NCBI GenBank assembly: GCA_049318005.1
Contig: JBMOHE010000003.1
Location: forward strand, 5,183-69,182
Source of the DNA: Patescibacteria group bacterium
Lineage (GTDB): Bacteria > Patescibacteriota > Patescibacteriia > Patescibacteriales > UBA12465
Direction of reading: 5' to 3'
DNA: 64,000 bases
Below, one piece after another: positions 26,588 to 59,425 of the stretch; within the stretch, counting starts at the first letter, position 1; every line of letters starts with the position of its first letter. A program made the translations under genes and the position numbers. The notes beneath the pieces were generated by a model, which worked only from the letters and a program-made list of their open reading frames with translations, made no database searches and was not told where the DNA came from.

Positions 26588-26605
26588 AGTAATATATTTT
26601 TAATA

Positions 26606-27322: not shown

Positions 27323-27421
27323 ATAATTAGTATTAATAAAAAGAGGAAAATAATTCCCACCTTTAAATTATAGCAAAAATGTGATAAATTTAGAACATCT
27401 TTAATAGATTAAAATAAATAT

Positions 27422-28687: not shown

Positions 28688-28701
28688 TAATAAGATTTAA
28701 A

Positions 28702-31713: not shown

Positions 31714-31728
31714 ATAAACTAAATATAT

Positions 31729-32748
31729 ATGGATACAAACGATAGATTAATTAGTCCGATTGAAAGACGTGGCGATGAGCAACTTGATTTGTCTTTGCGC
31801 CCAAAAACTTTAGGTGAATATATAGGACAAGAGAAAATTAAAGCTAATTTAGAAATAACGATTGCGGCTGCTAAAAAAAGAAATGAGCCGATTGAGCATG
31901 TTTTATTATATGGAGCTCCTGGACTCGGAAAAACTACTTTAGCTCACGTTATCGCCAATGAAATCGGGGCTAATATTAGAATTACTTCTGGCCCAGCGAT
32001 TGAAAAGAGCGGCGATTTAGCGGCGATTTTAACCAATCTTGAAGCGGGCGATATTTTATTTATTGATGAAATTCATAGACTTCATAAAACAATTGAGGAA
32101 ATTTTATACCCAGCCATGGAAGATTATGCTCTTGATATTGTTATGGGCAAAGGGCCAAGTGCGAGAACTTTACGTTTAGATTTACCGAAGTTTACTATTA
32201 TTGGGGCAACTACTTTAGCAAGTTTATTATCAGCTCCTCTTCGTGATCGTTTTGGTATTACGCATCATTTAAATTTTTATGAAACTGGAGATATTGAAAG
32301 AATTATTAAGCGTAGTGCAAAAATTTTGGGAGTAGAAATTGATGATGATGCTAAAAATGCGATTGCAACTCGTAGTCGCCGCACCCCTCGTATAGCAAAT
32401 AGATTATTAAAACGCGTTCGTGATTATTGTGACGTTAAAGGGGACGGAAAAATAAGTTTGAAAGATTGTTTAGAGGCTTTTAATATGCTTGAAGTTGACG
32501 AACTGGGGCTCGATTTAATCGACAGAAGAATACTTGAAACAATCGCTAATAAATTTAAAGGTGGACCAGTTGGTTTAAATACACTCGCTGCATCAACGGG
32601 TGAAGAAATGGATACAATCGAAAACATGTATGAGCCATATTTAATGCAACTCGGATTTTTAGATAGATCACCGCGCGGTAGAATTATTACTCACTTGGGT
32701 TATGAGCATTTAGGCTTGAAAGTTCCGGGAGCGGATAAGTTATTATAA
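31729..32748 (+). CDS. ruvB: Holliday junction branch migration ATPase RuvB
   Basis: [21 protein letters not shown] and [15 protein letters not shown]. Confidence 0.92.
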
Positions 32749-41264: not shown

Positions 41265-41269
41265 AATTT

Positions 41270-44200
41270 ATGTTTAAAAAAAATTCGAAAAAATTAATCG
41301 CCCTTTCCTTACTAATGAGTGGACTATTATTTGCGCGCTTTGCTTTGGCGCAAGATTTTGGTACGGAAATAGTTAATAATAGTTTAAATGGATCGCTAGG
41401 CACAATGACCGATCCTCGTGAGCTGGCCGGTAGAATAATAAATATAGCCCTCGGCTTTTTAAGTGTTGTTGCTGTTGGGTTTATTCTTTATGCCGGTTTT
41501 CTTTGGATGACTTCTAATGGCGAGGAGGACAGAATAACAAAAGCTAAACAAATTTTAAGAAGTGGCCTTATTGGTCTTGGTATAATTTTATCTTCTTGGG
41601 CGATTGCAAGTTTTGTAATTTTAAAATTAAGTGGAGCGATAGGTAGCGATGGAAATAGTAATGGTGGTGGCTGTTTAGAAAATACTGTTAGTCCTTGTGG
41701 TTGCGGAGGATCAATGATTTGTAGTAATGGATTTTATGGTGCTTGTGTGGGATCAAATTTAGATAATTGCTCTAATCCGCCAACTAGTTGTGATTCTAGC
41801 TCGACCCCTGGTTGTCAGGCGGCTAGTCAAATTTGTGCAGCTGGAGATTATTGTGATAATAGTTGTCTTTGCCAGACTAAGGCGGAACTAGGTGACTCTT
41901 GCGATGCTGACTTAAATAATCAAACCTGCGATGTTGATAATAATCGTTGCGCTGAATATTTAACTTGTAATCCTAATACTTGTTTATGTGATGGACCGCC
42001 GGCAATTACCGGCATGAGTCCTATCGGGGGTTTCTGTAGTAATGATGCTAGTAAATCTTGTGCGAAAGACGCTGATTGTGGAGAGGGAAATACTTGTAAT
42101 GATAACACCCCAAACGGCGCGGCTAATAATTTTATTACTATCTCAGGAACGAACTTTGGCGAATACTCAGCCACTAATAGTAAGATTGTATTTTTAGGAG
42201 GTGATCAGTCAAATTCAATTTCTGGTCCCGGTGAAAGCGAAGACCCGATTGGCCCTCCAATTGGCGTGCCCGCAACTGCGCGCGAAGCCGTTTCTCCCTC
42301 AGTTATCAATCCTTCATGTATTAGTTTTTGGCGCAACGATCAAATTGTTATTGCGGTTCCATCTGGTGTTCAAACCGGGCCGATAAAAGTTACTAACAAA
42401 GAAGGTTTGAGCGATATTACTAACGATAACTTTGGTCCTTCATTGCCTGATTTTGTTGCTAACGGAATAAGTCGTCCTGGTCTTTGTGATTTAGACCCGG
42501 TTAAAGGATCTTTAAGCTCAGAGGTTAACTATCAGGGCGTAAATTTATATTCAGGCAAAGCTTACTTCGGCAATTATAAAAGTAATGTTAGTGGTTTATA
42601 TTCAAATTTTAATGTCGCTTCGGGTTTATCTGGAACCTCGACAACCCCAAATATTCGCGAAGGTGAGTCCGGAAGTTTTGTTGAAACTGTTGTAAATGGA
42701 TCTTTACAAAAAAGTAATTATCTAAAATTCATAAAAGACAGAGAAGAAGGAGATGGTCCCTATATCATGTCTTTCTCGCCAATTGATGGTGCTCCTGGCC
42801 AATATGTAACTATTAAAGGATCTGGTTTCGGTGGCGCAAAGGGTGAAAATAAAGTTTATTTTGTTACAGGAAATAGTAAGATTGAAGCTTCTTATGCTTT
42901 TCCGGCAATTTGTGCTAATTCAGTTTGGGGAGAAAATCAAATAATTATTAAAGTTCCAGCACTTATCGCTAATGATAGTTATCAGCTTGAAGTTCAAATT
43001 GCCTCAACTACACTTTCTACTCAAAGATTGAATCCAAATACTTTTGGCGTTAATGATTCTCTTAAATTAAGACCAAGCTTGTGTAAAATGGACCCGGTCA
43101 CGGGACCAATTGATACCCCACTTATTCTTTGGGGAGAGTATTTTGGTAAAGTTGGTAGTAATGGCCTAGTTCAGTTTAATTTTAGACAGAATGCTAACGG
43201 AATAATTAAAAATGAAAATGAAGCCAATGTAATAAATACCAGCGTGCCAAAGATGGCGCTTACTGGTCCAGTTAAAGTTATTAATAATGAAAGCGGAAAT
43301 GAATTAAATTTTTCAGTTAGCGAATGCACAAAAAATGAGGAATGTAATAATCAAGTTTGTTGCCCTCAAAATACTTATAGAAAGGGTCGTTGTGTAAATG
43401 ATTTAAGCGAGTGCGTCGTAGATATCCCAACTTCAGTTTATGAGTGGAGTTTTAGTACTAGCTTTGACGCTAGCACAACACCAAAATTTTCTAGTTGCTT
43501 AGGTTTATCTAAATACTTGGGCTCTTGCTATCAAGGGGCTATGTGCCCTAATAGTGCTGGTGCCTGTTCATCACCTTCAACTAGTTATGATAAGGTCGTC
43601 GGTTCTTGCGACGTAACTTGTAATAATGTCCCTGGATGTAGTTCGGCAACTTGCGGCTATGATAAAGATTTAGATAAATGCGTTAATAAATCTACGGAAA
43701 AAGTTTGTGATCTATCTAGTTCTATTAGTTTTGAGGCTAGCGATTATTCAATTAAAGACGCTAAGCCAAATACAACTGAAAAAAAATGTAATAGCGAGGG
43801 AAAGTGGGAAATTAAAGCTCAAACTTCTTGCCCAATTGGCTGGACTAAGGGTCTGAATAATGCTTGTACTCAGGATGATTCTAGTTGTAATCTTTGTGCG
43901 GATAAATTAACTTGCGAAAAAGTTGGGACTACAAATAAATGTGTTTCAGAAAAATTATGTAAAGATAGTCAAGCGATTTGTCTTGATAATTTAGATAATT
44001 TAGCATCCCCTGACAACTGTATAATTAAAGTTGCTCCGAGTTGTGAGTGCTGTTGTCGTATAGGGAAAGACACTGAAGACTGCTGCGCCCCCTTAACTTG
44101 CGCTGGTAAATGTGGATCCGATGTAACGGCTAATTCTAATACTTATGGGTCATGTTCTGGATGTGCTGCAGTTGGTACAACGCAAGATGCTCATGACTCG

Positions 44201-47161: not shown

Positions 47162-47202
47162 ATAAGTAATTGCTTAAAATAGTAAAAAATTAATTTTCAT
47201 AT

Positions 47203-50200
47203 ATGAAAAAAAACAAACTGATTATTTTTTGGCTTATTGTTATTTTGTTTGTGCCACTTATTATTTTAAATGTCACTCTTGCCCAAACAAATACGTCTGC
47301 CAATAATTCTAGCGGCTCTTATGTGAATAGTAATGATGCTATCGGTGTAAGAATTATTCCAAATAATGATCATCTCAGTATTTCTAGCTGGTATAAAAGT
47401 AAGGGTTTCACTGGCGCGCCTCAAGCTTTGATAGTGGACGGTTATGAGGCTATTCGTGATGGTCGAACGGTTTATGTAAATGCAGCCAACGTTAAGGGAA
47501 AACAAATTTTTACAAATATTTATTTGATTTCATATAACCAGGATCCTTCAATAAAAACTATTGATATTCTTGGCCAAATTGTTAAAAACTGGAAATTCAA
47601 TACTGACTTAGTTGAGAGAACTAACCCAGCTCCAAGCTGTGAAATATCTTCTGTATCTTGCACGACAAATGCGGATTGTGTTTCCAACCAAATATGTAGC
47701 ACTTCGGCTAATGATTCACCTTATTCCTTTTCTACTCCTAATTCATGCCAATTAAAAACAACTAAATATTGTCTAACTGACAGTGACTGTCCTACGAGCT
47801 TTTTCTGTAGTAGTGCTAAAGCAAAAATAATTAGAGACATGAAAAGAATTAGCAAGACTGAAGATTTAAAAGAAGCCTTATATAAGTATAAATCAGCTAA
47901 GGGATATTACCCTAAATTATCAGCTGGGAGTTATTTAAGTAATCAAACTATCTCTGCTTGGCCAAGTTGGTCCGAATCTTTTTTATCAGAATTATCTCTG
48001 CCTAGTATTACAGATCCAGTTAATCGTTTAGGCGCTTGTCCTGGTTATGACGCTAAGACTTGTTGGAATAAAGATACAAGAAGATTTTATAGTGCGTCTA
48101 ATGGAAGTTTGCTATTACCAGCTGGAAGCTTTGGTTTTGTTTACAAAACTGATTCTCAAGGATCAACCTTTGATCTTTGCTCTGTTATGGAGACCAGGGA
48201 ACCGACAACCGATTTGAACTTTCAATTTTCACCGGCTATGCCAGTTAATTCAAATTGTGTTTTAGCAACTGGAGTATTATCTAACGGAACATTATCTAAT
48301 ACCGCGCCTCATATAACTAATTCCTATTTAATGGGTGATACTGGGCAGGAATTTAAAGGCTCGCTTGAGGTTGTTGATAATCAGAATAATCCAATGACTT
48401 GGGATTTTAATACAAGTGGAGTTAATTGGATTCAAGCCGGCTGGAGCGCGGCACCTACCCTAAAGGAGACGGCTAATCCTAATCAGAAGAAAATAACCGC
48501 GGTTAAAGCTGGTAACCCTGGCGTTTATCCGGTTAAACTAACGGTTACCGATGGAGTTAAAATCAATGGCCTAGTTGGGACTTTAAGCACAACTACTAAT
48601 ATAGTAATTGTTAATCCAAAATCATTTATTGAGGCTGAAAATGCTGAATATTTACTAAATCCAAAAACGACTTTTAATTATAGTTTTTATTTTTCAGATG
48701 ATAATTTGGTCGATTATAAAACGGCGTTTAAAGTGACAGCAATTAGTAGTAGTAATGCCTATAATCCCTTGAGTGCTCCAAGCTCTGTTGAAGCGGCAGG
48801 GATAAATCGTTATAAAGTAAATTACTTGGTAAAAATACCAGTTACAAGTAAATTTTATTTCGATGCTAATTATATTTATCGTTTAACGGTTAGTGATAAA
48901 TTTAGAGCGGAAACAACCAAGGATATAAAAATTGCCATTAAAAGCGCGGCCCCTAATTTGAATTTTAATTGTTCAAGCACTGGACGCTTGGGCTCAACTT
49001 ATTCTTGTTTACTTGGCCCTACTGAGCAGGCAGACCAAAAATTAACTTATTCTACTAATGGTTTAAATTTTGGAGGTTTAGTAATTACGAGTAACGCAAC
49101 TTCGTCATATTTAAGTTCTCAAGAAACTAATCTGCCAACTAGTGGTTCTAGTAGCACTACTGTAAGTATTAAAGTTACTAATGAATATGGCGCATCAACA
49201 ACAAAAGCTTTCAATTTAAGTCTTAAGACTTATTGTGGAGACGGAATTTTACAAGATAAAGAACCTAATACTGAGGCACGGGGTGGTATTTATAATGACG
49301 GTTATGAAGATTGTGATGGAACGGCCGGTGTTGCAACTTCGGTTTCAACTAGTTCGAGCAAACAATATGCTTGTACAACTTTTAACAAAAATACGCCTAA
49401 TCCAATTGTAACTAATGGATACTGCGTATTTAAGTCACCGGTTAATGGTGGCGGTTTCTGTGGTGACGGATATTGTCAAACAAAATATGAAAATAAGGAT
49501 AATTGTGATCAGGATTGTTTATCTATTTGTGTTCCTACTTGTGAGGCAAAGGGAAGTGATTGTGGTGATAATGGCTGCGGAGGAATTTGCGGGGAATGCA
49601 GTATAGGCGATGAATGTTTTGGGGGCAAGTGCTGTATGAAGGAGGCAACCATTAAAACTTCATTTTATTCAGGTAATCAGGCAGATGAAATAATTGAGGT
49701 TTATTTCAATGGCAAAAAAGGAGCCTTGTCTTCTAGCGGGAGTTTTGATGGGGTCGTTTCTCATGGTAAGAATGTTTTAGCAATTAAGGCAGATGGTTTT
49801 GAGTCTTTTGACAGAGCTATAGTTGCTAAACTTGACCAGATTTCCCAAACTATTAATCCAGTCACAAAACAAGCAAAAAACGCTTGTCGAGCCGTGACGA
49901 CCGATAATTTAAAAAATTGGAAATGTCGAAATACTATTAATAACGGAAGCTATATTACTCAAACTTGGGCAGATTTAGATTATAATGATTCTTCTTGGAC
50001 AAACCCAATAAATACTGGGACCACGACCCAAGGAGCAAATATTTGGGCCCTAGATTTTCTTGATGATGAACAATCAAAAACATCGCAGCAATTAACAACG
50101 GCTTATTGTCGCTATACTTTTACTGGAGACCAGTTAGATAGTGATCATTCAACTCCTGATTGCGCTGGTAAAGAATGTGGGCCAAACGGGGTTGGCGGCT

Positions 50201-51687
50201 CTTGTCGCCCAAATAATTGCCCGGCGATCAATATTGATTCAGCAAATAATAAACCTAACCAGAATTTTAAATGTAATGAGACTTTAGGAAAGTGTGAATG
50301 TACAAAAGATACGGCCGAAACAAGAAATGCTAACAATAACAAAATTGCTGGCCAAGAAGGCTCAGCTTGTGGAACTTTCAGTGATACTTGTAACGGCATG
50401 ACTAAGGCTGGAAATATTTGCGGGGAAGGCTTGTATTGCAATCTTTCAACTGCCAACAATAAAGCAAAAAATTATTATATTGGTGAGCATAGCTATGTTG
50501 CTCTTGGTATACAGATTTATGATAATACTTCAATTACTGAAAATGGTGGGGATCTTTCTCACAAGAATGACTACCAATTCATTACAAAGGGTTGTAATTC
50601 TAATGCGCCAGACAATACCTGCCAGAAGAAATGCTGGGACACTAGTATTACTAAAGAGTTGACCGTTAGACAAGGTGATATTCCTGAGACAACTACTTGT
50701 GCTCTTGCAAGTAAGAAGGAGGACCCTGATTGTGATGCTTCGGGCTACGCTAATCCAGCTTGTCCTAGCGATTGCGATGCAACGCGTACTGAGCTTACAG
50801 GAGGAAAAGGAATAAAGAATGACAGTTGCGTTAGAGGTTATTCTTGTTGGTTTGGCATGGCTACTTGTTATGAGTGGAATCGAAGATTGGCTTGGAGTTG
50901 CAGTGAAACAGTAACTACAAGAGCCTTTTTCGGTCAAAGTTGTGGCGCTGGCAATAATGCTATTGATGCTAGTGGTAACTGTACTTGTAAACCGATTGAT
51001 TGTGCTGGAAAGTGTGGGTCTAATGGATGCGGAGGTGTTTGTAATAACGGTTTATGTGGCGATTCTCAAATATGTAGTAGCGGCACTTGTGTAAGCTGTA
51101 GTCATGATTGTAGCGGTAAAGCTTGTGGTCAAGAAAATAGTTGTGGTGAAAAATGTTCTAGCGGTTCTTGCCCAACTTTGTCAAATGGAGTAGCGTTGAC
51201 TTGTGAAAATAATACTTGCACGTGTAAGCCTAATTGCGCCGGTAAGACCTGTGGCGCAGATGATAGTTGTGGAGGTAAATGTTATAATGTAAATAATACT
51301 TGTGGCGCAAGCCAATATTGTACAACCTTTGGATGTAGAGATAGCTTTGGAGCGTGCGAAAGTCAGACAGACAATTTGGACTATCAAGAAGTTTGTTGGT
51401 CTAAGGATAGCGAAGGGACTTGCCCGGCAAATAATCCGTATAAGTGCCTCTGGTTTACCGGCGGAACCTGTAGCAGCCTTAAAACTACTGGCCCCGCGCT
51501 TCAGGCTTGTGCAAGCATTTTAACTCGATCAGCCTGTAAAGCAGCAACCCCGACAAATTTATGCAGATGGATGTCTGACGGTTTCTGTACTAGCTTAGAA
51601 ATGAGCAAGAAATTAAGTTGCAAGATTAATCGCACTTTTGGTGACTGTGAAGCAGCCGCTGATTGCAGCTGGAATACTCTTGAATAA
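47203..51687 (+). CDS. Giant Cys-rich secreted protein 3 (1494 aa) with an embedded pseudopilin-like globular domain
   Basis: N-terminal signal/anchor. Residues about 205-330 (nt about 47815-48192) resemble type IV pilin/GspG globular domains (RDMKRISKTEDLKEALYKYKSAKGYYP...LPSITDPVN...FVYKTD...FDLCSVME). Repeated CxGKxCGxxxxCGGxC units and CGDG...CD repeats are also present. Confidence 0.8.
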   Translation: MKKNKLIIFWLIVILFVPLIILNVTLAQTNTSANNSSGSYVNSNDAIGVRIIPNNDHLSISSWYKSKGFTGAPQALIVDGYEAIRDGRTVYVNAANVKGKQIFTNIYLISYNQDPSIKTIDILGQIVKNWKFNTDLVERTNPAPSCEISSVSCTTNADCVSNQICSTSANDSPYSFSTPNSCQLKTTKYCLTDSDCPTSFFCSSAKAKIIRDMKRISKTEDLKEALYKYKSAKGYYPKLSAGSYLSNQTISAWPSWSESFLSELSLPSITDPVNRLGACPGYDAKTCWNKDTRRFYSASNGSLLLPAGSFGFVYKTDSQGSTFDLCSVMETREPTTDLNFQFSPAMPVNSNCVLATGVLSNGTLSNTAPHITNSYLMGDTGQEFKGSLEVVDNQNNPMTWDFNTSGVNWIQAGWSAAPTLKETANPNQKKITAVKAGNPGVYPVKLTVTDGVKINGLVGTLSTTTNIVIVNPKSFIEAENAEYLLNPKTTFNYSFYFSDDNLVDYKTAFKVTAISSSNAYNPLSAPSSVEAAGINRYKVNYLVKIPVTSKFYFDANYIYRLTVSDKFRAETTKDIKIAIKSAAPNLNFNCSSTGRLGSTYSCLLGPTEQADQKLTYSTNGLNFGGLVITSNATSSYLSSQETNLPTSGSSSTTVSIKVTNEYGASTTKAFNLSLKTYCGDGILQDKEPNTEARGGIYNDGYEDCDGTAGVATSVSTSSSKQYACTTFNKNTPNPIVTNGYCVFKSPVNGGGFCGDGYCQTKYENKDNCDQDCLSICVPTCEAKGSDCGDNGCGGICGECSIGDECFGGKCCMKEATIKTSFYSGNQADEIIEVYFNGKKGALSSSGSFDGVVSHGKNVLAIKADGFESFDRAIVAKLDQISQTINPVTKQAKNACRAVTTDNLKNWKCRNTINNGSYITQTWADLDYNDSSWTNPINTGTTTQGANIWALDFLDDEQSKTSQQLTTAYCRYTFTGDQLDSDHSTPDCAGKECGPNGVGGSCRPNNCPAINIDSANNKPNQNFKCNETLGKCECTKDTAETRNANNNKIAGQEGSACGTFSDTCNGMTKAGNICGEGLYCNLSTANNKAKNYYIGEHSYVALGIQIYDNTSITENGGDLSHKNDYQFITKGCNSNAPDNTCQKKCWDTSITKELTVRQGDIPETTTCALASKKEDPDCDASGYANPACPSDCDATRTELTGGKGIKNDSCVRGYSCWFGMATCYEWNRRLAWSCSETVTTRAFFGQSCGAGNNAIDASGNCTCKPIDCAGKCGSNGCGGVCNNGLCGDSQICSSGTCVSCSHDCSGKACGQENSCGEKCSSGSCPTLSNGVALTCENNTCTCKPNCAGKTCGADDSCGGKCYNVNNTCGASQYCTTFGCRDSFGACESQTDNLDYQEVCWSKDSEGTCPANNPYKCLWFTGGTCSSLKTTGPALQACASILTRSACKAATPTNLCRWMSDGFCTSLEMSKKLSCKINRTFGDCEAAADCSWNTLE

Positions 51688-51713: not shown

Positions 51714-52043
51714 ATGAATATAAATCTAAAATTAGATAAGAAAAAAATAATTATTATTGGTTCGGTGGCCTTAATAATAATTTTAATTATTGTTTTCTCT
51801 ATCGTAATCTATCAAAAAAATAAATCAGCCGAAAATAATGGCGCAACTAAAACTGAAAAAATTTTTACGCCTGATTTTCTAAGCACTGAAGAAAAAACTA
51901 AGTTAGAAATTCCAACCGAGGTAAAAATTCAAGCGATGGCTAGAGATAAGAACGGTAAGGTTACTGTTTATAAAGTTATCAAGGGAACTTCTGATGTTGA
52001 AGATCCAGCTAAAGTTGAACCTATTAGCCCAAGATCTAAATAA
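51714..52043 (+). CDS. Small single-pass membrane protein
   Basis: One TM helix (IIIIGSVALIIILIIVFSIVIY). Co-directional with the cluster. Confidence 0.55.
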   Translation: MNINLKLDKKKIIIIGSVALIIILIIVFSIVIYQKNKSAENNGATKTEKIFTPDFLSTEEKTKLEIPTEVKIQAMARDKNGKVTVYKVIKGTSDVEDPAKVEPISPRSK

Positions 52044-52133
52044 ACAATTAAAACTTGCTGGTCAAGCAAAAAATTATTCGCTATAATTTAAATATTAATA
52101 AATAAGCCGCTTAAAGCGGTCACTCAAAAATAT

Positions 52134-52883
52134 ATGTTTAACGATCTTAATAATCCTAATGCCTCTGGTCATGCGGCCGTTGACGATATTTTTGCTGAAA
52201 CCGATAAAACGAACCAAAATAGCATGCCGTCAGACATTGAAACCCATAGAGTTGGTTTAGCAAATAATGGCAGTGTAGCGCCTTTGGTCAGCAATACTTT
52301 ATCTGAAAATATGGTTGAAACTCAAGGTGGTAAAAAAAATTATTTAAGAATTGTAATTATTGTTGTAATTGTTATAGCTATTTTAGGTGGTGCTTATTTT
52401 ACCTATTCTCAGTTTTTTGCGCCTAGTACTCAGGAAATAATTGCTACTACGACTCCTAAAGTTGAAAAGAAGGCTGTTGAGTCACCACTTGCTCCAAAAA
52501 CAGAGGATACTGGATTTGTTCCTGTTATCCCAGAGGCTGATCAAACTCCAGCCGTTGAATCAACTACTAGCGAAACGGATATAATTCCAAATACAGATGT
52601 TCCTACTACTGAAGATATAAATACTCCATCAGTCGATTTAGCTGTAGATTCAGATAGTGATGGCTTAACGGATGCTGAGGAGAAAATAGCCGGAACTAAT
52701 TCTAATGTTATTGATACTGATAATGACGGCCTAAGTGATTATGAGGAAGTAAAAATTTATTTAACTAACTCGCTTGCCGCCGATACTGATGGAGATTCTT
52801 ATTTAGATGGCGCCGAAGTTAAGGGTGGTTATGACCCTAATGTTAAGGGCGGAAAACTCCCTGGCAATACACCTAAAAATTAG
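52134..52883 (+). CDS. Single-pass membrane protein with thrombospondin type-3-like Ca-binding repeats
   Basis: A TM helix followed by DSDSDGLTDAEE, DTDNDGLSDYEE and DTDGDSYLDGAE. Confidence 0.7.
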   Translation: MFNDLNNPNASGHAAVDDIFAETDKTNQNSMPSDIETHRVGLANNGSVAPLVSNTLSENMVETQGGKKNYLRIVIIVVIVIAILGGAYFTYSQFFAPSTQEIIATTTPKVEKKAVESPLAPKTEDTGFVPVIPEADQTPAVESTTSETDIIPNTDVPTTEDINTPSVDLAVDSDSDGLTDAEEKIAGTNSNVIDTDNDGLSDYEEVKIYLTNSLAADTDGDSYLDGAEVKGGYDPNVKGGKLPGNTPKN

Positions 52884-52906
52884 TTTTTTTGGGTTTAATT
52901 TTCCTT

Positions 52907-53107
52907 ATGTTAAAAAGTAATAACTCTAAACCAAATTCGCGACCAAGTATGTTTGGCGGCAGCGTTAAAAGGCCGACTCTTTCCCTGAACCTACATACTA
53001 TGCCGCAAACAATTACTAGCCACTGGACAAGGTGGCTGGTTTTAGGTTTTGTTATTTTATCTATATTTGCGGTAGCCTCATTCTTGCTTTATTCTTTTAC
53101 GCAATAA
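52907..53107 (+). CDS. Small C-terminally anchored membrane protein (66 aa)
   Basis: ATG at 52907 with a C-terminal TM helix (WLVLGFVILSIFAVASFLLY). Weak call. Confidence 0.35.
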   Translation: MLKSNNSKPNSRPSMFGGSVKRPTLSLNLHTMPQTITSHWTRWLVLGFVILSIFAVASFLLYSFTQ

Positions 53108-53110
53108 TCT

Positions 53111-54157
53111 ATGTTTGGCGCTAAAAAGAAAATAAAAAAAAATGATGAAAGTGCGGAGATAACTCTAAAAGTTAATTCTGATTTGCTTGTGCGTAATATG
53201 CCCAGCTTAGCAAAGCTCACTAATACTTCGCTATCTTCGAACCTAAAACCAGCTCAAGCAAGCCATAATGTTCTATCCTCGATTGAAAGGCCGACTGGCA
53301 ATAAGCACCAGACGGTTGGAATATTGATTATTCTAGGCGGCTGCATTTTAATTGGAGCCTTGGTTTATTTGAGCTATATTTTTATTATTAAACCGCAAGC
53401 CGCTAGCAATGTTAAAAAAGTGGTAGCTCCTGAACCAGCTAAAAATAGCGTTATAAATATTAAACCGGCTACTAGCAGCGAAGAAATAATTACACCGGTA
53501 GCAAGTATCGTTGCGACTATTACGCCAACAGCTCTGGGTTTAGAAGATATCGCTTCGACGACTACTATGGCCGAAGAGTCGACTGGACGAAATAGTATTG
53601 ATTTACCACCTCTTCTCGATACTGATAGTGATGGCTTAATTGATGATGAGGAAACAGTTTTAGGCGCAAACCCTAATGCCGAAGATTCAAACAACAATAA
53701 TTATAAGGATGCAGCTGAGCTAGCTAATAACTATGATCCAGCCGGAAGCGGTAAAATTGAGACTAATAAATATTTAGCCAAATATGCCGACAATGCCAAT
53801 ACTTATGATTTTTTATATCCAAAAGATTGGGAATTTAGTATTTTAAATAATAATTCAATTATTATTTTTAATTCACCAGACGACTCAATTATCCAGGTTT
53901 CTGTCCAAGAAAATACTACTAAACAAGCTATTCTAGCTTGGTATAACGAGTCTTTCCCTGACAGCGCACTTACTAGTGACAGGTTAAAATCGACGGGTAC
54001 TTGGGATGGAGTTATGAGCGACGACGGTTTAAATTTTTATTTAACTGATAAAAAAAAGGCTAATATTTACGTAATTTCATATATTCCAGCCGTGATGAAT
54101 CGCCTTGCTTATCCAAATATATTTAAGCTAATGATAAACTCATTAGTAATAAAATAA
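53111..54157 (+). CDS. Single-pass membrane protein with one DxDxDG repeat and an unknown C-terminal domain
   Basis: TM helix (VGILIILGGCILIGALVYLSYIFII), then DTDSDGLIDDEE, then a globular C-terminal region of about 130 aa. Confidence 0.65.
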   Translation: MFGAKKKIKKNDESAEITLKVNSDLLVRNMPSLAKLTNTSLSSNLKPAQASHNVLSSIERPTGNKHQTVGILIILGGCILIGALVYLSYIFIIKPQAASNVKKVVAPEPAKNSVINIKPATSSEEIITPVASIVATITPTALGLEDIASTTTMAEESTGRNSIDLPPLLDTDSDGLIDDEETVLGANPNAEDSNNNNYKDAAELANNYDPAGSGKIETNKYLAKYADNANTYDFLYPKDWEFSILNNNSIIIFNSPDDSIIQVSVQENTTKQAILAWYNESFPDSALTSDRLKSTGTWDGVMSDDGLNFYLTDKKKANIYVISYIPAVMNRLAYPNIFKLMINSLVIK

Positions 54158-54158
54158 A

Positions 54159-54187
54159 TAGACAATCAGCCTAAATTTTGCTATAAA
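54159..54187 (+). promoter_or_regulatory. Putative promoter of the ncRNA/RT operon (extended -10)
   Basis: TAGACA at 54159-54164, a 17-nt spacer, then TGc-TATAAA at 54179-54187. The predicted TSS at about 54192-54196 coincides with the first base of the ncRNA closing helix. Confidence 0.45.
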
Positions 54188-54194
54188 TAAGATA

Positions 54195-54388
54195 TTAGCT
54201 AGCTTATAAAGTCGTCGTAGCCACCTAAATTTATTTAGGGTACCAAAAATTATAGTATTAGTCGTCTTATTCGTTGGTACCGTGGCGCCTAGTAGTATAA
54301 TTAGCACCCATCACTGGGTTCAATACTATTTTCGATTTGTGATGCGCCGTTTGGTGGCATCGCGCTACGGCGACTAGCTAGTTTTTTT
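54195..54388 (+). ncRNA. Structured non-coding RNA immediately upstream of the RT (retron msr-msd-like or DRT-type ncRNA candidate)
   Basis: A 247-nt gap with no ORF. The long-range closing helix is 54195-54221 paired with 54364-54381: 11 bp gtcgtcgtagc/gctacggcgac plus 6-7 bp tagctag/ctagcta, with a 5' bulge. Internal hairpins are 54224-54239 (cctaaa/tttagg), 54239-54281 (ggtaccaa/ttggtacc) and an extended imperfect hairpin at 54284-54348. It ends in T7 (54382-54388), 16 nt before the RT ATG. Confidence 0.55.
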
Positions 54389-54404
54389 ATAGTTAATATT
54401 TAAT

Positions 54405-55616
54405 ATGAAAAATCAGATTATTGATCTAGCGAATATTAAACAGGCTTACTTAGACCTTGCAAATCAATTTGAAGAAAAATTAAAGACGACCCGTTATACC
54501 GGGTTTGATTCTGTTAAGTTAACAGATGTTGATTATAAGGCTACCGGTATTTTAGATGAGGTTAGGTCTGATTTAGTAAATTCTGCACCGCTTACTCCAG
54601 TTAGATTAGTTAATATTTTAAAAAAAGACGGGAAAAAAAGGGAAGTTTTCATTTTGACTGTTAAGGATAGAATTAGAGCTAGGGCAATTTATCGAATTTT
54701 AGAACCACTGTTTGAGTTAAATTATAGTCCTTATCTTTTTTCCTATCGCTCAAGTCACCCCAGCGCCTATGCGGCTCGGAGCGTTGCTAGACGCTACCAT
54801 CGTTATTTTGGCCAGGATTATGTCATGACAATTGATATAAAAGATTATTTTAATTATCTTGACCATGATGTAATTAGAAAACAGCTCACTGCGCTTGGCA
54901 TAAAAAACGATGTTCTAGAAATGATTGAGCCATTTTTTAAGATAAAACTCTGGCAGAATGGCAAGCTAGTTACTTGGGATAAAGGAATCCCTCAAGGTAC
55001 TCCTTTCAACTCTTTATTTTCAAACTACTATTTAACAGATCTTGATAACGAGCTAGGCTCAAAGGTCTCTCTCTATAGGCGAGTCGGTGACGATTTAATT
55101 GCCTTTGATAAAAATAAGGAAAAATTAGAAGAAGTTTTTAATCTAGCTAAAAAAAGAATTACCGATCTCGGGCTAGTAATTCAGGATAAAAAAACTCATT
55201 TTGCTAAGAATACTGAGGAATTTTCCTATTTAGGTTATCTTTTTAAAGATAATTCTCTCCGTTTACGTTCTGGGCTAGTTCGAGAATTAAAAATTGCTTG
55301 GCATAAAGAATTAAAATATAATCATTCTAGTTTAGAAAAAAAAGTTTCAAAATTAAAAAGTTTGTGTTTTTTCTCAGAAAATAATTTTCAAACTCAGTTT
55401 TTAGAAATTTTAAAACAGCATCAACAGCTAGATGACGATGAGGGGGTTAAGCAGTTGTCTAATCAATTCTATAATTATGTAGCGGCTTATCTATTTGGTA
55501 AAGCGACGCCGAGAAATAGGCGTTTAGCCAAAGAAAAACTTAAAGAAATAAAAATACCTTCTTTTTATGAGTATTACTTGGCCTACAGACGGGGCAAAAA
55601 AAAGTCCGCGGCTTAA
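54405..55616 (+). CDS. Reverse transcriptase (403 aa), non-intron, non-DGR type
   Basis: RT motifs in order: 1/2 KKDGKKREVFILTVKDRIRARAIY; 3 SYRSSHPSAYAA; A YVMTIDIKDYFNYLDH; B GIPQGTPFNSLFSNYYL; C YRRVGDDLIAF (nt 55083-55094 encode VGDD); D/E KTHF...FSYLGYLF. An alpha-helical thumb-like tail follows. Confidence 0.9.
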   Translation: MKNQIIDLANIKQAYLDLANQFEEKLKTTRYTGFDSVKLTDVDYKATGILDEVRSDLVNSAPLTPVRLVNILKKDGKKREVFILTVKDRIRARAIYRILEPLFELNYSPYLFSYRSSHPSAYAARSVARRYHRYFGQDYVMTIDIKDYFNYLDHDVIRKQLTALGIKNDVLEMIEPFFKIKLWQNGKLVTWDKGIPQGTPFNSLFSNYYLTDLDNELGSKVSLYRRVGDDLIAFDKNKEKLEEVFNLAKKRITDLGLVIQDKKTHFAKNTEEFSYLGYLFKDNSLRLRSGLVRELKIAWHKELKYNHSSLEKKVSKLKSLCFFSENNFQTQFLEILKQHQQLDDDEGVKQLSNQFYNYVAAYLFGKATPRNRRLAKEKLKEIKIPSFYEYYLAYRRGKKKSAA

Positions 55617-57324
55617 ACTTTTTCAAGCACGACGAAGTATTAAATTTGAAAATGGGCGCCTAACTATTACCCGGTGGCAGTATAGGCGTTTAAAAAAATT
55701 TTACATTCAGCATAAAACTAAATTTTTTTGGTTATTTTTATGTTTAATAGTTCAGTCTCTGCTGGAAATTTCTTTGCCAGTTTTTAGCTCGGTAATTGTA
55801 AAAGAAGTAAATATTTTTATTTACAATAAGCAAATTGTCTCATATCTTTCCGTTTTGTTTTTAGGTGTGGCTGTTTATTTAGTTAGTGCCTTTCTATATT
55901 TATTAGTCGAAAAAACTTTAATTATTCAGTTAATTAATGAGCTTAGAGAACATTGGTTCAAATTATTTTTGTATCGCGCACCCAATCGAACTAATAGTCG
56001 CGATAAAGCAAAATTATTAGCGAAGGTTACTTATCATTTTTCTTTGCTCCAGGTAAGTTTAGGTGCCTCTATAGGTGGCGCTCTACGCTGGACTATAAAC
56101 TTTTTTGTTCTTTTAGCCTTTGCTTTAACTAGTAGCTGGTCTTTAGTTTTTTATGTTTTGGCCAGCTCTATTTTTAGCATAATTTTGTTAGTAATTGGTT
56201 ATTATATTGGTTTGTATTATTTAAGTCGTGAAGCCTCGCTTTCTAGCGCTATTATTAGCCATATTTCTGAACAAGCTGACCAAGTTTCATTACTACAAAA
56301 TCAAGCTAGAGAGAAGGAATCAATAAACCAAATGCGTCGCCTTGTAGCTCTCGACTCCGTTCTTAAAATACGAAGAACTCTTTGGATGAATTATGGCAAT
56401 AAACTTATATATTCTTTAATTGTTATTTCGACAGTCTTAGTCATAGTTGTGCCTAGCATTTTTCCTGATATTAATTTCGCGTCACTTCTGTCAGGAATAG
56501 ATATATTTTTTGGCTTGATAGTCGCCTTGCTAATTCGACAGCTATATTTAGGACTGAGAATCGGCTTGAATGCAGTGCCAACGCAAATCGGCCTTTCTTT
56601 GTCATTGCCGCAGCCCGAAAGTCCGAGGGTAAGACTGGACAAGGTTGGAGAATTTAAGGAAATTGTTTTTAAATCAAAAAAGTTTAAATTGACCCCTGGC
56701 GGTAGTTATTTTAAAAACGTTGAAATACTATTTAAGTCTGGTTGCGCGTATTTATTTTTTGGCGAGCTTGGATCAGGAAAAAATCAATTAGCAAAAATTT
56801 TTAGTGGTCGCTCAATAGAAGAGGGGAAGCCCTGGATAATCAGGCTTAATGGAGAAAGATATCTATATAAAGAATGGCGTAGAGTTTCTCGTCGAGCTTT
56901 TTTTGTAAGTGGCAAGATTGCTGGCGGAGCATCGCTCGCTGAAATTATTTCCGGAGAAGCAAAGACGAAAATTAAATCCGAACAAATTGAAAAAATTTGT
57001 CTTCTTATAGAAGAAATACCGGCCTTAAACTTTTTAAATAATATTCCAAAATTAATTGCGGCCAATATTGATCAAACATCTTTTACGGAAGCGGAAAAAG
57101 TTTTAGTGGAACTAGCTTATTGTTTAATTAGGGAGCCAAATTTAATCGTTATTGATGACTCAGTTTTTTATTTACCTGACCCAAGAATTAAAGAGATGTT
57201 AGAAATATTAGCGCCTCGTTTAAAAAAATCAATTATAATTTTATTTTCAAGACATAAATTAGACTATTTAGACTTTACTAATATTTATGAAATCAACAAA
57301 AAGTTTTTTAAAGAAAATTCCTAG
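55567..57324 (+). CDS. ABC-exporter-like membrane protein with a degenerate nucleotide-binding domain (585 aa)
   Basis: A basic N-terminus and about 6 TM helices arranged like type-I ABC exporter TMDs. The C-terminal NBD has Walker A GELGSGKN (nt 56761-56784) and Walker B LIVIDD (57142-57159). FTEAE stands in place of the LSGGQ signature. The H-loop-like segment is SRHKL. It overlaps the RT by 50 nt. Confidence 0.75.
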   Translation: MSITWPTDGAKKSPRLKLFQARRSIKFENGRLTITRWQYRRLKKFYIQHKTKFFWLFLCLIVQSLLEISLPVFSSVIVKEVNIFIYNKQIVSYLSVLFLGVAVYLVSAFLYLLVEKTLIIQLINELREHWFKLFLYRAPNRTNSRDKAKLLAKVTYHFSLLQVSLGASIGGALRWTINFFVLLAFALTSSWSLVFYVLASSIFSIILLVIGYYIGLYYLSREASLSSAIISHISEQADQVSLLQNQAREKESINQMRRLVALDSVLKIRRTLWMNYGNKLIYSLIVISTVLVIVVPSIFPDINFASLLSGIDIFFGLIVALLIRQLYLGLRIGLNAVPTQIGLSLSLPQPESPRVRLDKVGEFKEIVFKSKKFKLTPGGSYFKNVEILFKSGCAYLFFGELGSGKNQLAKIFSGRSIEEGKPWIIRLNGERYLYKEWRRVSRRAFFVSGKIAGGASLAEIISGEAKTKIKSEQIEKICLLIEEIPALNFLNNIPKLIAANIDQTSFTEAEKVLVELAYCLIREPNLIVIDDSVFYLPDPRIKEMLEILAPRLKKSIIILFSRHKLDYLDFTNIYEINKKFFKENS

Positions 57325-58771
57325 AATTCCAAAACGGATAGTTTTAATTTTTTTTGGCGTTATTATTCTTGTCATGTTGATTGCAGCATCAGTTTTTTGG
57401 TTAATTGATAGTAGATTATTTAACAATAAGTACGCGCCAAAGTATTCAGAAGAAGCTCCTCGCAACCTTGAAGCGGAAATTTTATTTAATAATAAAGTTG
57501 GTGAGAGCGAATTTTCAGCCGCCTTTGTTGGTCTGATCAGGAGTGCAAGTTCAAGTATTGATTTAGCAATGTATTCTCTTGATTCGACTGAAATTAGAGA
57601 TGAACTTTATAAGGCTGCTAATCGTGGGGTGATTGTCAGAGCAGTCGTTTCTTCAAATAAAAGAACCCAATACAATAATTTATTTAAAGACAAGCCAGCT
57701 AATGTCTTCTTAAGTGAGGAAAATTTGGGCCCCAAACAGAACGGCTTTATGCATAATAAATATATTATTAGTGATGCAAATAGTAGTAAAAAGACAATGA
57801 TTACAGGGTCTTTTAACTCAACTCGTCTTCAGGAGTTATATGATCCGAGCTTCATATTTAAGACTTATGATGAGACTATGATTAAATACTACGGCCAAGA
57901 ATTTGAACGTCTATTTTCCGGGAAATCTGGTTTGGCTAAATTTAATGATAAAACTTATAGTGCTTGGCAGGCGGATTTGAATTATAAAAATGGAAAAATG
58001 GAAATTTGGTGGAGCCCTGGTTCTGGCGAGGTAACTATAAAAAAAAGAATGCTCGAGCTCATTTATCAGGCCGAGGAATCTATTGATATCATGATTTGGC
58101 AGACGACGGATAAAGAAATCTCTCAAGCTCTAATTGATAAAGCGGCTAGCGGTGTTAAGGTAAGAATTATTGCTGATGACTCTAACGCCTGGCTCGATGT
58201 TTCCGCGCTTCCCCAGATAGTCGCCGCCAGTTTAAATTCTAATAACTTAATTATTGTTGATGACGCGGCCAGAACAGTTGATTTTTTAAATGAGATATTT
58301 AAAGACTCTCTAGTCGATAAAAATAACTTTAATTCTTTTCTGCATCACCATGCTTTAATAATTGATAAGAAAATCTTAATTTCTGGGAGTGGAAACTGGA
58401 GTTATAGTGCTAATTTCAGTAATGATGAAAACACATTAATTACTACAGTGCCCGATTTAATTAAATTGTATCAAGACTCATTTGATTTTAATTTTAATAA
58501 GTTACATAAACAAAGTTTAGAATTCAAATTAAGTCAGGAAGAGATAATCCTTCCCAATTTGAATTCTTATCTTGGTTATAATCTAGTTTTATTAGGAGAA
58601 GATTCAAAATCAGCGCCTATGACCCAGATTTGTTCAAGTGAAATAATCAGACTTAATGAATTTAAAATAAAAATTCCTGAAAATTGTAAAAATAAAGCTT
58701 TAAATATTTTTATTATTAATTCAACTGGTGAAGTTGAGGCTAATCGCTTGATTGGAAAAATTAATATTTAG
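57287..58771 (+). CDS. Membrane-anchored PLD-superfamily protein (two HKD-type lobes; nuclease or phospholipase)
   Basis: Basic N-terminus plus a TM helix (IVLIFFGVIILVMLIAASVFWLI). HKD1 is HNKYIISD...GSFN (nt 57752-57775). HKD2 is HHHALIID...GSGN (nt 58343-58366), with His in place of Lys. It overlaps the ABC-like gene by 38 nt. Confidence 0.8.
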   Translation: MKSTKSFLKKIPRIPKRIVLIFFGVIILVMLIAASVFWLIDSRLFNNKYAPKYSEEAPRNLEAEILFNNKVGESEFSAAFVGLIRSASSSIDLAMYSLDSTEIRDELYKAANRGVIVRAVVSSNKRTQYNNLFKDKPANVFLSEENLGPKQNGFMHNKYIISDANSSKKTMITGSFNSTRLQELYDPSFIFKTYDETMIKYYGQEFERLFSGKSGLAKFNDKTYSAWQADLNYKNGKMEIWWSPGSGEVTIKKRMLELIYQAEESIDIMIWQTTDKEISQALIDKAASGVKVRIIADDSNAWLDVSALPQIVAASLNSNNLIIVDDAARTVDFLNEIFKDSLVDKNNFNSFLHHHALIIDKKILISGSGNWSYSANFSNDENTLITTVPDLIKLYQDSFDFNFNKLHKQSLEFKLSQEEIILPNLNSYLGYNLVLLGEDSKSAPMTQICSSEIIRLNEFKIKIPENCKNKALNIFIINSTGEVEANRLIGKINI

Positions 58772-58796
58772 TCTTGCGCTTTAAAGTTTCATAAAT

Positions 58797-58831
58797 AAAA
58801 AAACGAGACGATTAGTTCGTCTCGTTTTTTA
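58797..58831. terminator. Bidirectional terminator closing the RT operon (+) and clpP (-)
   Basis: aaaaaaacgagacga-ttagt-tcgtctcgtttttt. Confidence 0.8.
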
Positions 58832-58846
58832 TTTTATTTATAGATT

Positions 58847-59425
58847 TTATTTTTTGATTATTTTATCAATTATTCCGTAAGCCTTAGCTTCGTCAGCGCT
58901 CATATAGTAATCTCTATCGCTATCTTTCTCGACTATCTCCGGCTTTTTTCCAGTATGAGCGGCAATGATTTTATTTAGTCTATCTTTTGTCTTTAAAATA
59001 TGAGCAGCGTGAATTTTAATGTCTGACGCTTGCCCTTCGGTTCCGCCCATGACTTGATGAATCATAACTTCGCTATTTGGTAACGCAAAACGTTTTCCTG
59101 GTTCTCCGGCCGCTAATAGAACCGAAGCCATCGAAGCGGCCATGCCTATGCAAATAGTCGTGACTGGTGATTTTATATATTGCATGGTGTCGTAAATTGC
59201 TAAACCGGCCGAAACTGACCCCCCGGGGGAATTAATATAGAATTTAATGTCTTTATCGCTATTTTCGGCATCAAGGAAGAGAAACTGGGCAATTACGATA
59301 TTAGCAGTATGATCGTCGATTGCTTCGCCCAAAAAGATGATTCTATCCTTTAAAAGACGGGAATATATATCGTAAGCACGCTCTATTTGGCCCTCTTTTT
59401 CAATAACTGTAGGTATTAATGGCAT
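58847..59425 (-). CDS. clpP: ATP-dependent Clp protease proteolytic subunit
   Basis: INSPGGSV, active-site Ser in GMAASMAS, and His in MIHQ. Confidence 0.92.

Follow-up and report, generated by a model that had tools for sequence, protein, structure and literature searches.

A conserved cassette of a group-II-type reverse transcriptase, a pseudoknotted RNA, an ABC-fold membrane protein, and a phospholipase D-like protein, found mostly in Patescibacteria

Organization of the locus

We analyzed a 64,000-nt window of a Patescibacteria metagenome-assembled genome (MAG) (assembly GCA_049318005.1, contig JBMOHE010000003.1, positions 5,183 to 69,182 of the forward strand; all coordinates are those of the window). 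Near its right end, a structured noncoding RNA (ncRNA) is followed by genes for a reverse transcriptase (RT), a protein with the fold of an ATP-binding cassette (ABC) exporter, and a membrane-anchored phospholipase D (PLD)-type protein. These four components form a conserved, co-evolving module, hereafter called the cassette (Table 1).

A first-pass annotation had described the locus as one bounded, translationally coupled transcription unit in a host resembling the candidate phyla radiation (CPR), and the promoter, gene overlaps, and terminator support this description, as does the assignment of the host to Patescibacteria. The single promoter that had been pointed out lies at the reported position, and alignment shows that both hexamers are kept in three relatives (L044, L045, and L046) whose RTs are 62 to 66% identical to the RT of the window. 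The element was not listed by a consensus scan because the scan rule accepts only T as the sixth base of the -10 hexamer. The overlaps reported between the three open reading frames (ORFs), of 50 nt and 38 nt, agree exactly with the coordinates in the ORF list, and the bidirectional terminator described after the PLD gene is present as a stem with U or A runs on both strands. An Rfam match to RefA9, an Enterococcus small RNA, on the minus strand at 58800-58857 (31.6 bits against a gathering score of 49 bits) corresponds to this terminator hairpin and is meaningless.

Table 1. Features of the cassette and their positions in the window
Feature	Position	Strand	Remarks
Promoter-like element (putative function, read from the sequence)	54160-54188	+	TAGACA 54160-54165, 17-nt spacer, extended -10 TGcTATAAA 54180-54188 (TATAAA 54183-54188)
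Structured ncRNA, ~195 nt	54190-54388	+	Helices P1 to P5, then U7 run; 5' end placed from the putative promoter
P1 closing helix, 5' strand	54198-54221	+	Partner 54363-54381; helices 1 and 2 compensatory in 19/20 pairs
Pseudoknot, 5' strand GGUACC	54239-54244	+	Directly 3' of P2; partner GGUACC 54276-54281
Pseudoknot, 3' strand GGUACC	54276-54281	+	Within P3 terminal loop
Conserved unpaired segment J4/5, UCAAUACUAUUUUCGAUU	54320-54337	+	Invariant alignment blocks
P5 hairpin, loop (G)CCGUUUGG	54339-54363	+	Directly 5' of P1 3' strand; 98.9% paired, 7/10 pairs compensatory
Group-II-intron-type RT, 403 aa	54405-55616	+	Fingers, palm, thumb/X, and C-terminal helical domain; no endonuclease domain
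RT catalytic box Y224-R-R-V-G-D229-D230	55074-55094	+	VGDD, not YADD; columns (nearly) invariant in 25-sequence alignment
ABC half-transporter-like protein, 585 aa	55567-57324	+	ATG 50 nt within RT ORF; basic cytoplasmic N-tail, 6-helix transmembrane domain, degenerate nucleotide-binding domain
Walker A GELGSGKN, residues 399-406	56761-56784	+	P-loop largely kept in family
Walker B LIVIDD, residues 526-531	57142-57159	+	Asp conserved, catalytic Glu replaced
Membrane-anchored tandem PLD, Nuc/NucT/Zucchini type, 494 aa	57287-58771	+	ATG 38 nt within ABC-like ORF; Pfam PLDc_2 x2, 134 bits
Signal-anchor helix, residues ~18-40	57338-57406	+	N-terminal, 7 K/R before helix
PLD motif 1, H156-x-K158-xxxx-D163	57752-57775	+	H, K, D in 39/39
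PLD motif 2, H353-x-H355-xxxx-D360	58343-58366	+	Lys replaced by His; H, H, D in 39/39
Cys pair C449/C467	58631-58687	+	C-terminal extension of long-form PLDs; likely disulfide
Bidirectional intrinsic terminator	58798-58830	both	14-bp stem, 5 GC pairs, T-runs on each strand; common to convergent clpP

Conservation of the cassette as a unit and its distribution

Pattern scanning of GTDB genomes, one for each species, yielded 40 loci with RT homologues (32 to 51% identical). By tblastn, the ABC-like gene came next after the RT gene in all loci with downstream DNA (39/39), and the PLD gene came next after the ABC-like gene in all loci with enough DNA (38/38). The RT/ABC-like/PLD synteny that the first-pass annotation had proposed to look for is thus present throughout, and the reading frames overlap in nearly every locus. 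At two loci (L039 and L040), the ABC-PLD pair is transcribed divergently from the RT gene. Even two very distant ABC-like proteins, 22 to 24% identical to that of the window, are followed by an overlapping PLDc_2 gene, and at L127 a truncated ORF 5' of a distant ABC-like gene is the C-terminal part of an RT of the same family. Across 39 loci, the pairwise identities of the RT, ABC-like, and PLD proteins correlate with one another (r = 0.92 to 0.95); therefore, the three proteins diverge as a unit.

The cassette is rare and patchily distributed. It occurs mostly in Patescibacteria, with further occurrences in Omnitrophota and on one Longimicrobiales chromosome. A scan of metagenome contigs with the RT protein retrieved one distant RT only (L043), and a scan of IMG/VR retrieved one family member (L047), which has giant ORFs (1153 and 1405 aa) on its flanks. 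Two MAGs, each a small genome, contain two or three divergent versions of the complete cassette (L010, L030, and L034 in CAYOAT01; L017 and L023 in JBAXPN01); the RTs of such paralogous cassettes are 54 to 62% identical, and two copies lie ~20 kb apart on one contig. Nine CPR-type cassettes were found in MAGs labeled "uncultured Gammaproteobacteria bacterium" (L004, L005, L014, L016, L018, L021, L025, L026, and L033). For seven of these (all except L004 and L005), the flanking genes group with Patescibacteria loci, and the taxon labels may be wrong.

The reverse transcriptase is of the group II intron type

The RT matches Pfam RVT_1 (E = 2.5e-24), and D229 and D230 are invariant in the family. 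In the RT, earlier described as carrying all catalytic motifs, the catalytic box reads VGDD, not YADD. The first-pass annotation had also likened the locus to retrons and to the unknown group/abortive infection (UG/Abi) systems, which include the defense-associated RTs (DRTs). This likeness did not hold for the RT, as hidden Markov models (HMMs), profile comparison with solved structures in the PDB, and the predicted fold all place the RT with the group II type. The NCBIfam model group_II_RT_mat (TIGR04416) was the top model for all RT family members tested (25/25; best E = 4.6e-49), with the RT of the window scoring 158 bits, under the 300-bit cutoff. When the family profile was compared with solved structures, the best match was the GsI-IIC RT (6AR1; 137 bits), followed by other group II RTs and Cas6-RT-Cas1. 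Lower scores were obtained for DRT9 (78 bits), DRT2 (54 bits), bRT (49.5 bits), G2L4 (45 bits), and the retron RTs Ec86, Ec78, and Eco7 (23 to 34 bits). An AlphaFold2 model of the RT (pLDDT 88) agreed in its ranking, with Foldseek TM-scores of 0.80 over the full length to 6AR1, 0.62 to 0.72 to DRT9 and DRT2, and 0.47 to 0.50 to retron RTs.

Retron identity was rejected on these grounds, as the retron models and structures reach 23 to 54 bits (the upper value being NCBIfam Retron_St85, with a cutoff of 235 bits) versus 137 to 158 bits for the group II type, and the TM-scores are correspondingly lower. Membership in UG/Abi was rejected as well, on the basis of model scores. The best UG models in PADLOC (RT_UG26, 108 bits; RT_UG17, 106 bits) score below the generic RT model (145 bits), and the NCBIfam models Drt2, Drt3a, and Drt5 fall far under their cutoffs (Drt2, 72 versus 390 bits).

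No group II intron RNA accompanies the RT. Neither Intron_gpII nor group-II-D1D4 matched at Rfam E values of up to 1 within 53900-59000, and no Rfam match to a group II intron was found at gathering score in the window and five further loci. The RT has ~245 nt of space upstream, and two protein genes and a terminator follow it downstream. The group-II-type HMM, profile, and fold matches, taken with the lack of intron RNA, mark the enzyme as a group-II-like RT that has been domesticated and that belongs neither to the retron nor to the UG/Abi RTs, and it fits the description of the group-II-like (G2L), intron-less RTs. Because the RT is of the group II type, the "hallmark" of retrons and DRTs that had been recognized in this locus is an analogy and not a membership.

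A covarying, pseudoknotted RNA precedes the RT gene

The ORF-free, heavily paired RNA of ~190 nt noted in the first-pass annotation was recovered with a length of ~195 nt; across the family, the size is ~200 to 300 nt. The 215 nt before the RT start (54190-54404) fold with a minimum free energy of -70.7 kcal/mol (z = -5.55), and none of 200 shuffled sequences was equally stable. The long helix P1 closes the RNA and encloses four hairpins, of which P2 is small, P3 long, P4 short and variable, and P5 conserved, with the conserved loop GCCGUUUGG; a U7 run comes last. The ends of the RNA are joined by a long-range helix of 16 bp or more in 24/39 loci versus 11/195 shuffles. P4 grows from ~15 nt in the window to near-perfect, GC-rich hairpins of 40 to 100 nt in L017, L021, L035, and L037, and these expanded forms recall retron msd stems.

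Covariation is heavy in two independently aligned subgroups (24 loci in total) and extends to the pseudoknot, in agreement with what the first-pass annotation had suggested searching for. In the first subgroup, RNAalifold predicted 58 pairs from five sequences, 20 of them compensatory. A covariance model built from five sequences matched full-length copies just 5' of the RT gene at five distant loci, one of them on a Longimicrobiales chromosome (L032, L031, L013, L006, and L008; E = 9e-9 to 0.04). In a nine-sequence alignment, which was fitted to the model, 93.4% of cells were paired versus 70% in shuffles and 31 to 50% with slid partners, and double changes occurred in 48/58 pairs of the same fitted alignment. 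Subgroup 2 (15 loci) was aligned by MAFFT alone and then subjected to RNAalifold and pair counting. Here, 56 pairs were predicted, 49 of which were compensatory, and the counterpart of the P5 hairpin was 95% paired (7/8 pairs compensatory).

The pseudoknot joins the segment 3' of P2 to the loop of P3. Its strands change together among loci: GGUACC/GGUACC in the window, GGUACU/AGUACC in L007, GUAUUA/UAAUAC in L032, GCAUUA/UAAUGC in L031, GUUGUCG/CGACAAC in L013, and GAUGUUA/UAACAUC in L006. In subgroup 2, the same interaction adds six pairs, which are 100% paired and of which 5/6 are compensatory. The unpaired segment J4/5 is a candidate functional or template region, and its UUUCGAUU was found again in L013 and L003.

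Among close relatives (RTs 62 to 66% identical), the ncRNA is 82 to 84% identical versus 67 to 68% for the nucleotide sequence of the RT gene, which puts its conservation on par with that of the clpP coding sequence (82.6%). In five loci (L021, L022, L028, L029, and L033), a separate GC hairpin with a U-run stands before the RT ATG. Given these hairpins and the U-run at the end of the RNA itself, the ncRNA resembles a discrete transcript, probably with read-through into the operon. In the window and in five other loci, the ncRNA reaches the gathering score of no Rfam family.

The ABC-like protein is degenerate in its nucleotide-binding domain

The second protein had been described as full-length and ABC-exporter-like. 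The fold part of this description stands, in that the protein has a six-helix transmembrane domain (TMD) and a nucleotide-binding domain (NBD) in an MsbA-like arrangement; the catalytic motifs of the NBD are degenerate. Pfam ABC_membrane and ABC_tran give weak matches, both under their gathering scores. The AlphaFold2 model (pLDDT 84) retrieves MsbA, TAP, PCAT1, and McjD by Foldseek over ~580 columns, with only 13 to 16% sequence identity to these solved exporters. The residues of Walker A are largely maintained among 41 family members (G in 31/41, G in 35/41, K in 30/41 with R in a further 5, and S/T in 34/41), and the Walker B Asp is invariant. In contrast, Asn stands in place of the catalytic Glu in 32/41 members (Asp in the window), the LSGGQ signature is missing, and the H-loop His is present in 3/41. 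With these elements gone, a homodimer would hold two degenerate sites.

The ABC-like protein is thus very probably not an active exporter. Its motif pattern suggests that it binds ATP without normal hydrolysis and acts as a switch or conduit, not as a pump. The cytoplasmic N-tail is conserved in length and basicity (mean, 43 aa with 11.4 K/R), and it may contact nucleic acid. The family is small and discrete, comprising 88 clusters (50% identity) at E values of up to 1e-10 among 1.84e9 representatives, with genuine ABC transporters appearing only above E values of ~1e-9.

The PLD protein is probably extracytoplasmic

The nearest solved chains to the PLD protein are MitoPLD/Zucchini, NucT, and Nuc, and the NCBIfam models NucT and DrmC match under their cutoffs; by these relationships, it belongs to the nuclease-type branch. 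The protein had been called a two-HKD PLD, which proved incorrect for the second motif: the first motif reads HxKxxxxD, the second HxHxxxxD, and both are the same in all homologues (39/39). Both catalytic His residues are kept, and PLD activity is therefore plausible.

All homologues (39/39) carry one N-terminal transmembrane helix with 2 to 11 K/R ahead of it. By the positive-inside rule, this arrangement predicts an N-in/C-out topology with the catalytic domain outside. Each long-form PLD (13/13) has exactly one conserved Cys pair, and nearly all of the 39 homologues lack Cys in the catalytic domain; the pair likely corresponds to a structural disulfide of an exported protein. Taken together, these sequence features make an extracytoplasmic catalytic domain probable.

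Genomic neighborhood

The cassette had been thought to occupy an accessory-type site directly after an island of surface proteins. Consistent with this, the region proved hypervariable when set against the neighboring housekeeping genes. In L044, L045, and L046, the order of giant surface proteins, small TSP3-repeat membrane proteins, cassette, clpP, and secDF is syntenic with the window. Between the window and L044, ClpP and SecD are 94 to 95% identical, whereas the RT, ABC-like, and PLD proteins are 58 to 66% and the upstream surface proteins 52 to 57% identical. The cassette thus lies within a hypervariable island that borders on conserved housekeeping genes.

Directly 5' of the island, the window encodes three giant secreted proteins of 930, 1968, and 1494 aa (38472-51687). 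The first two begin with a T4SS_pilin (VirB2/TrbC-like) domain and contain Big_5, TIG, and fn3 domains; the third is very Cys-rich. These giant proteins are 46 to 52% identical to those of relatives and diverge as fast as the RT cassette. They are followed at 51714-54157 by a run of small proteins with a single transmembrane helix (109, 249, 72, and 348 aa), which is syntenic in L044 to L046. The 249-aa and 348-aa proteins contain Asp-rich, TSP3_bac-like repeats (weak or faint matches), and a link to the cassette is possible. Further upstream (23086-32748), RmuC, a UvrD-type helicase fused to a PD-(D/E)XK nuclease (AddA-like), and RuvB are ordinary housekeeping proteins.

Among 148 flanking ORFs, N_methyl (8/148) and T2SSG (4/148) domains were counted along with single genes of the PilB, PilC, and DprA types, and the neighbors include surface or pilin-like proteins with CLec/FGE-sulfatase domains. 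A conserved protein of ~198 aa with a single transmembrane helix and no Pfam match adjoins the cassette in 15 loci of RNA subgroup 2 (L012, L014, L016, L017, L019, L021 to L023, L025, L026, L028, L029, L033, L035, and L041). Its gene lies directly after the PLD gene in 13 loci and just upstream of the cassette in L014 and L035, with one or two cupredoxin-like membrane proteins nearby. This protein could be a lineage-specific fifth component or merely inherited synteny.

Relation to described systems

The first-pass annotation had proposed that the architecture is undescribed, and the cassette, conserved as it is, was absent from all resources searched. In a PADLOC run, no catalogued system fit the combination of RT, ABC-like protein, and PLD. 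Against PADLOC-DB v2.0.0, the ABC-like protein had no matches, the PLD matched parts of DrmC and MkoC domains, and the RT matched generic RT models. NCBIfam, Pfam, and Rfam do not contain the RT, ncRNA, ABC-like, and PLD components as a system, and full-text literature searches for an RT combined with an ABC-exporter-like protein and a PLD found no description. Mention of a PLD or ABC-exporter partner is likewise absent from the UG/Abi survey, which reports no ABC-fold or PLD effector for any UG group, from the classification of retrons, from the myRT paper and the FEMS review, and from the DRT10 papers.

Retrons are tripartite, toxin/antitoxin-like defense systems of an msr-msd ncRNA, an RT, and an effector. 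The cassette resembles them in its free-standing RT, in an upstream ncRNA in which a long helix, possibly comparable to a1/a2, joins the two ends around a variable internal hairpin region, and in its operon with one or two effector genes; some retrons have membrane effectors. In contrast to retrons, the cassette RT lies outside the retron clade, and its RNA differs in its conserved core and contains a pseudoknot, with no msr/msd division or conserved priming G identifiable in the cassette ncRNA. Among the retron types, none has a TMD-NBD ABC protein or a PLD as a partner (PMC7736814).

Class 2 UG/Abi systems (DRT2, DRT9, and DRT10/UG17) likewise have a structured, pseudoknotted ncRNA 5' of the RT, which in their case is used as a template. 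The cassette RT differs in being nearer in fold to the GsI-IIC RT than to DRT9 and DRT2. DRT10/UG17 has a SLATT transmembrane effector, for which the buildup of cDNA has been proposed as the trigger (bioRxiv 10.64898/2026.04.29.721553). Unlike in UG17/DRT10, no SLATT protein is found beside the cassette RT, whose sole partners are the ABC-like protein and the PLD.

The best relatives of the RT in sequence and structure are the group II RT/maturases, G2L4, and the CRISPR-associated RTs, with which it has the domain layout of the GsI-IIC RT in common. Like the G2L enzymes, it occurs without an intron ribozyme; in contrast to group II and G2L enzymes, its active site is VGDD and not YADD or YIDD, and it is obligatorily tied to an ncRNA of ~200 nt and two membrane proteins. 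G2L4, by comparison, is a solitary YIDD enzyme of double-strand break repair.

The ABC-like protein shares the TMD6-NBD fold, Walker A, and the Walker B Asp with type IV (MsbA/TAP/PCAT-like) ABC exporters, a group that also contains ABC proteins with degenerate sites that do not transport, and differs from the exporters in the three missing catalytic elements, the 43-aa basic N-tail, and its membership in a separate small family. The best HMM and PDB relatives of the third protein are HKD-type PLDs, namely, Nuc, NucT, Zucchini (MitoPLD), and DrmC of DISARM. Zucchini is N-terminally membrane anchored, and Nuc and NucT are exported enzymes. The cassette PLD is not a single-domain homodimer but a tandem (pseudo-dimeric) protein with an invariant HxHxxxxD motif 2 and an optional C-terminal Cys-pair domain. 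The cassette is of the kind formed by a domesticated RT, an ncRNA, and effector genes, with an unusual group-II-type RT, a pseudo-ABC protein, and a probably extracytoplasmic PLD.

Possible functions of the cassette

The single most likely role, to which we assign a probability of roughly 45%, is defense against phages or other mobile genetic elements. We favor this role because of the analogy with retrons, DRT2, DRT9, and DRT10, together with the fast evolution, divergent paralogues, and rare, patchy spread of the cassette. Most characterized loci with a stand-alone RT, an ncRNA, and an effector are defense systems, including retrons, DRT2, DRT3, DRT9, and DRT10 (PMC9226505, PMC12039810, PMC12632851). 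In such a system, the RT would bind the ncRNA and copy part of it into cDNA, as in retrons and class 2 DRTs. The resulting ribonucleoprotein (RNP) or cDNA would then report on or control the state of the membrane pair by way of the ABC-like protein, whose NBDs lie in the cytoplasm together with its basic N-tail. The NBDs may bind ATP without hydrolyzing it, such that the dimer would be a switch or conduit, not a pump, and would gate the phosphodiesterase activity of a PLD whose catalytic domain most likely lies on the outer face of the membrane. The pair could thereby act as an abortive-infection or envelope-level effector that is restrained or triggered by the RT-ncRNA-cDNA complex.

Several points weigh against a defensive role. 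A PLD that faces outward cannot attack cytoplasmic phage DNA and would be a poor fit with a classical intracellular defense nuclease, and we know of no RT defense system with an extracytoplasmic effector. The lineage of the RT also gave rise to G2L4, a DNA repair enzyme. In a test for a DRT2-like "neo" gene, a stop-free ORF on a concatenated template, the circularly open segments of 12 ncRNAs were at most as long as those of shuffles. The backing from genomic context is weak: the cassette occupies a fixed chromosomal site in the lineage of the window, matches to defense models among the 148 flanking ORFs are sporadic, and these ORFs encode mainly pilin-like (N_methyl/T2SSG), cupredoxin-like membrane, giant surface, and housekeeping proteins. 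Flanked as it is by giant ORFs, the IMG/VR member gives no evidence of phage carriage, and its contig is not convincingly viral.

Some of these points would suit a role in the trafficking of nucleic acids across the envelope instead, in which the ABC-fold conduit and the outward PLD would serve to process nucleic acid or to move it into or out of the cell, with the RT-ncRNA RNP working on the cytoplasmic side. Examples would be the scavenging of DNA or RNA, or competence, in nucleotide-auxotrophic CPR, and the export and surface processing of RT-made DNA. The predicted location of the PLD and its nearness to secreted or periplasmic nucleases (Nuc and NucT) and to Zucchini are consistent with this role, as are the fixed chromosomal position and a neighborhood enriched in type IV pilin-like proteins, with single PilB-, PilC-, and DprA-type genes and giant surface proteins. 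ABC-exporter adaptors have an N-in, single-pass topology with a large outer domain, which the PLD would fit. However, an NBD without catalytic Glu, signature, and H-loop His makes ATP-driven transport unlikely, the rarity of the family (88 clusters) is unlike a core nutritional function of CPR, and the pilin genes lose weight in that CPR genomes are rich in them and that the loci are in many cases not phylogenetically independent. To our knowledge, there is also no precedent for an RT in uptake or export, and we regard a non-defensive trafficking role as rather unlikely. Unlikely, too, is a trans-envelope RT system in which the RT-ncRNA particle or its cDNA would be physically coupled through a non-hydrolyzing ABC-fold conduit to the outer-face PLD, either to export or display RT-made nucleic acid or to gate and process incoming nucleic acid at the surface of the episymbiotic CPR cell.

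The upstream RNA might be mainly a cis-regulatory leader, serving as an attenuator or, like domain DIVa of group II introns, as a site of RT autoregulation, with the RT acting on other substrates and the ABC-like and PLD proteins merely co-expressed. Group II RTs are known to bind a stem-loop located at the start codon of their own ORF, the cassette RT is of this type, and the RNA ends in a U-run, or in a GC hairpin with a U-run, right before the RT start in the window and five further loci (L021, L022, L028, L029, and L033). A G2L4-like function in DNA repair is one such substrate choice, as G2L4 is a group-II-type RT domesticated for that purpose (PMC12337344). Against this, five nested helices and a pseudoknot covary across RTs that are only ~35% identical, which exceeds the need of an autoregulatory hairpin; the RNA comes with a putative promoter and a terminator of its own, as a free-standing RNA would; and a repair role leaves the strict co-divergence with two membrane proteins unexplained. 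We therefore hold a cis-regulatory leader to be improbable. A decayed or unusual mobile retroelement, either a remnant of a group II intron or a diversity-generating retroelement (DGR) acting on the adjacent surface proteins, is more improbable still. The RT is closest to group II intron RTs, CLec/FGE-sulfatase surface and pilin-like proteins occur among the neighbors, and DGRs dominate the RTs of CPR (PMC8632793), but both forms of this explanation are largely refuted. The Rfam scans revealed no group II intron RNA (E values of up to 1 within 53900-59000; gathering score in the window and five loci), and the flanks are conserved in relatives, giving no sign of mobility. When 40-nt segments of 54151-54404 were compared with the rest of the 64-kb window (all non-A positions matched, with at most one mismatch), no A-tolerant template/variable repeat pair was found. 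The RT carries PQG and not a DGR-type motif, bRT scores 49.5 bits versus 137 bits for the group II RT, and the ORF list of the window holds no Avd-like ORF. Finally, the weak Pfam scores of the ABC-like protein are all that would speak for a chance adjacency of unrelated genes next to a fortuitously stable intergenic region; the synteny, overlapping frames, co-divergence, and RNA covariation refute it, leaving it a negligible likelihood.

Implications

If the reading of the cassette as a domesticated RT system is true, it would be a new branch among the few such systems of prokaryotes, drawn from the group II intron lineage and not from retrons or UG/Abi. It would also be the first RT system to be linked with an ABC-fold membrane protein and with a PLD that is probably extracytoplasmic, and it has a dedicated pseudoknotted RNA. 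The pseudo-ABC/PLD pair may be a new effector or signaling module, and the RT-RNA pair is compact (403 aa and ~200 nt) and of possible biotechnological interest, like other ncRNA-templated RTs. A PLD that resides outside the cell would challenge the view of RT systems as confined to cytoplasmic targets, and a trans-envelope function, if true, would represent biology distinct from every described retron, DRT, DGR, or intron mechanism. The cassette occurs mostly in Patescibacteria, a group in which the mechanisms of immunity and host interaction are poorly charted.

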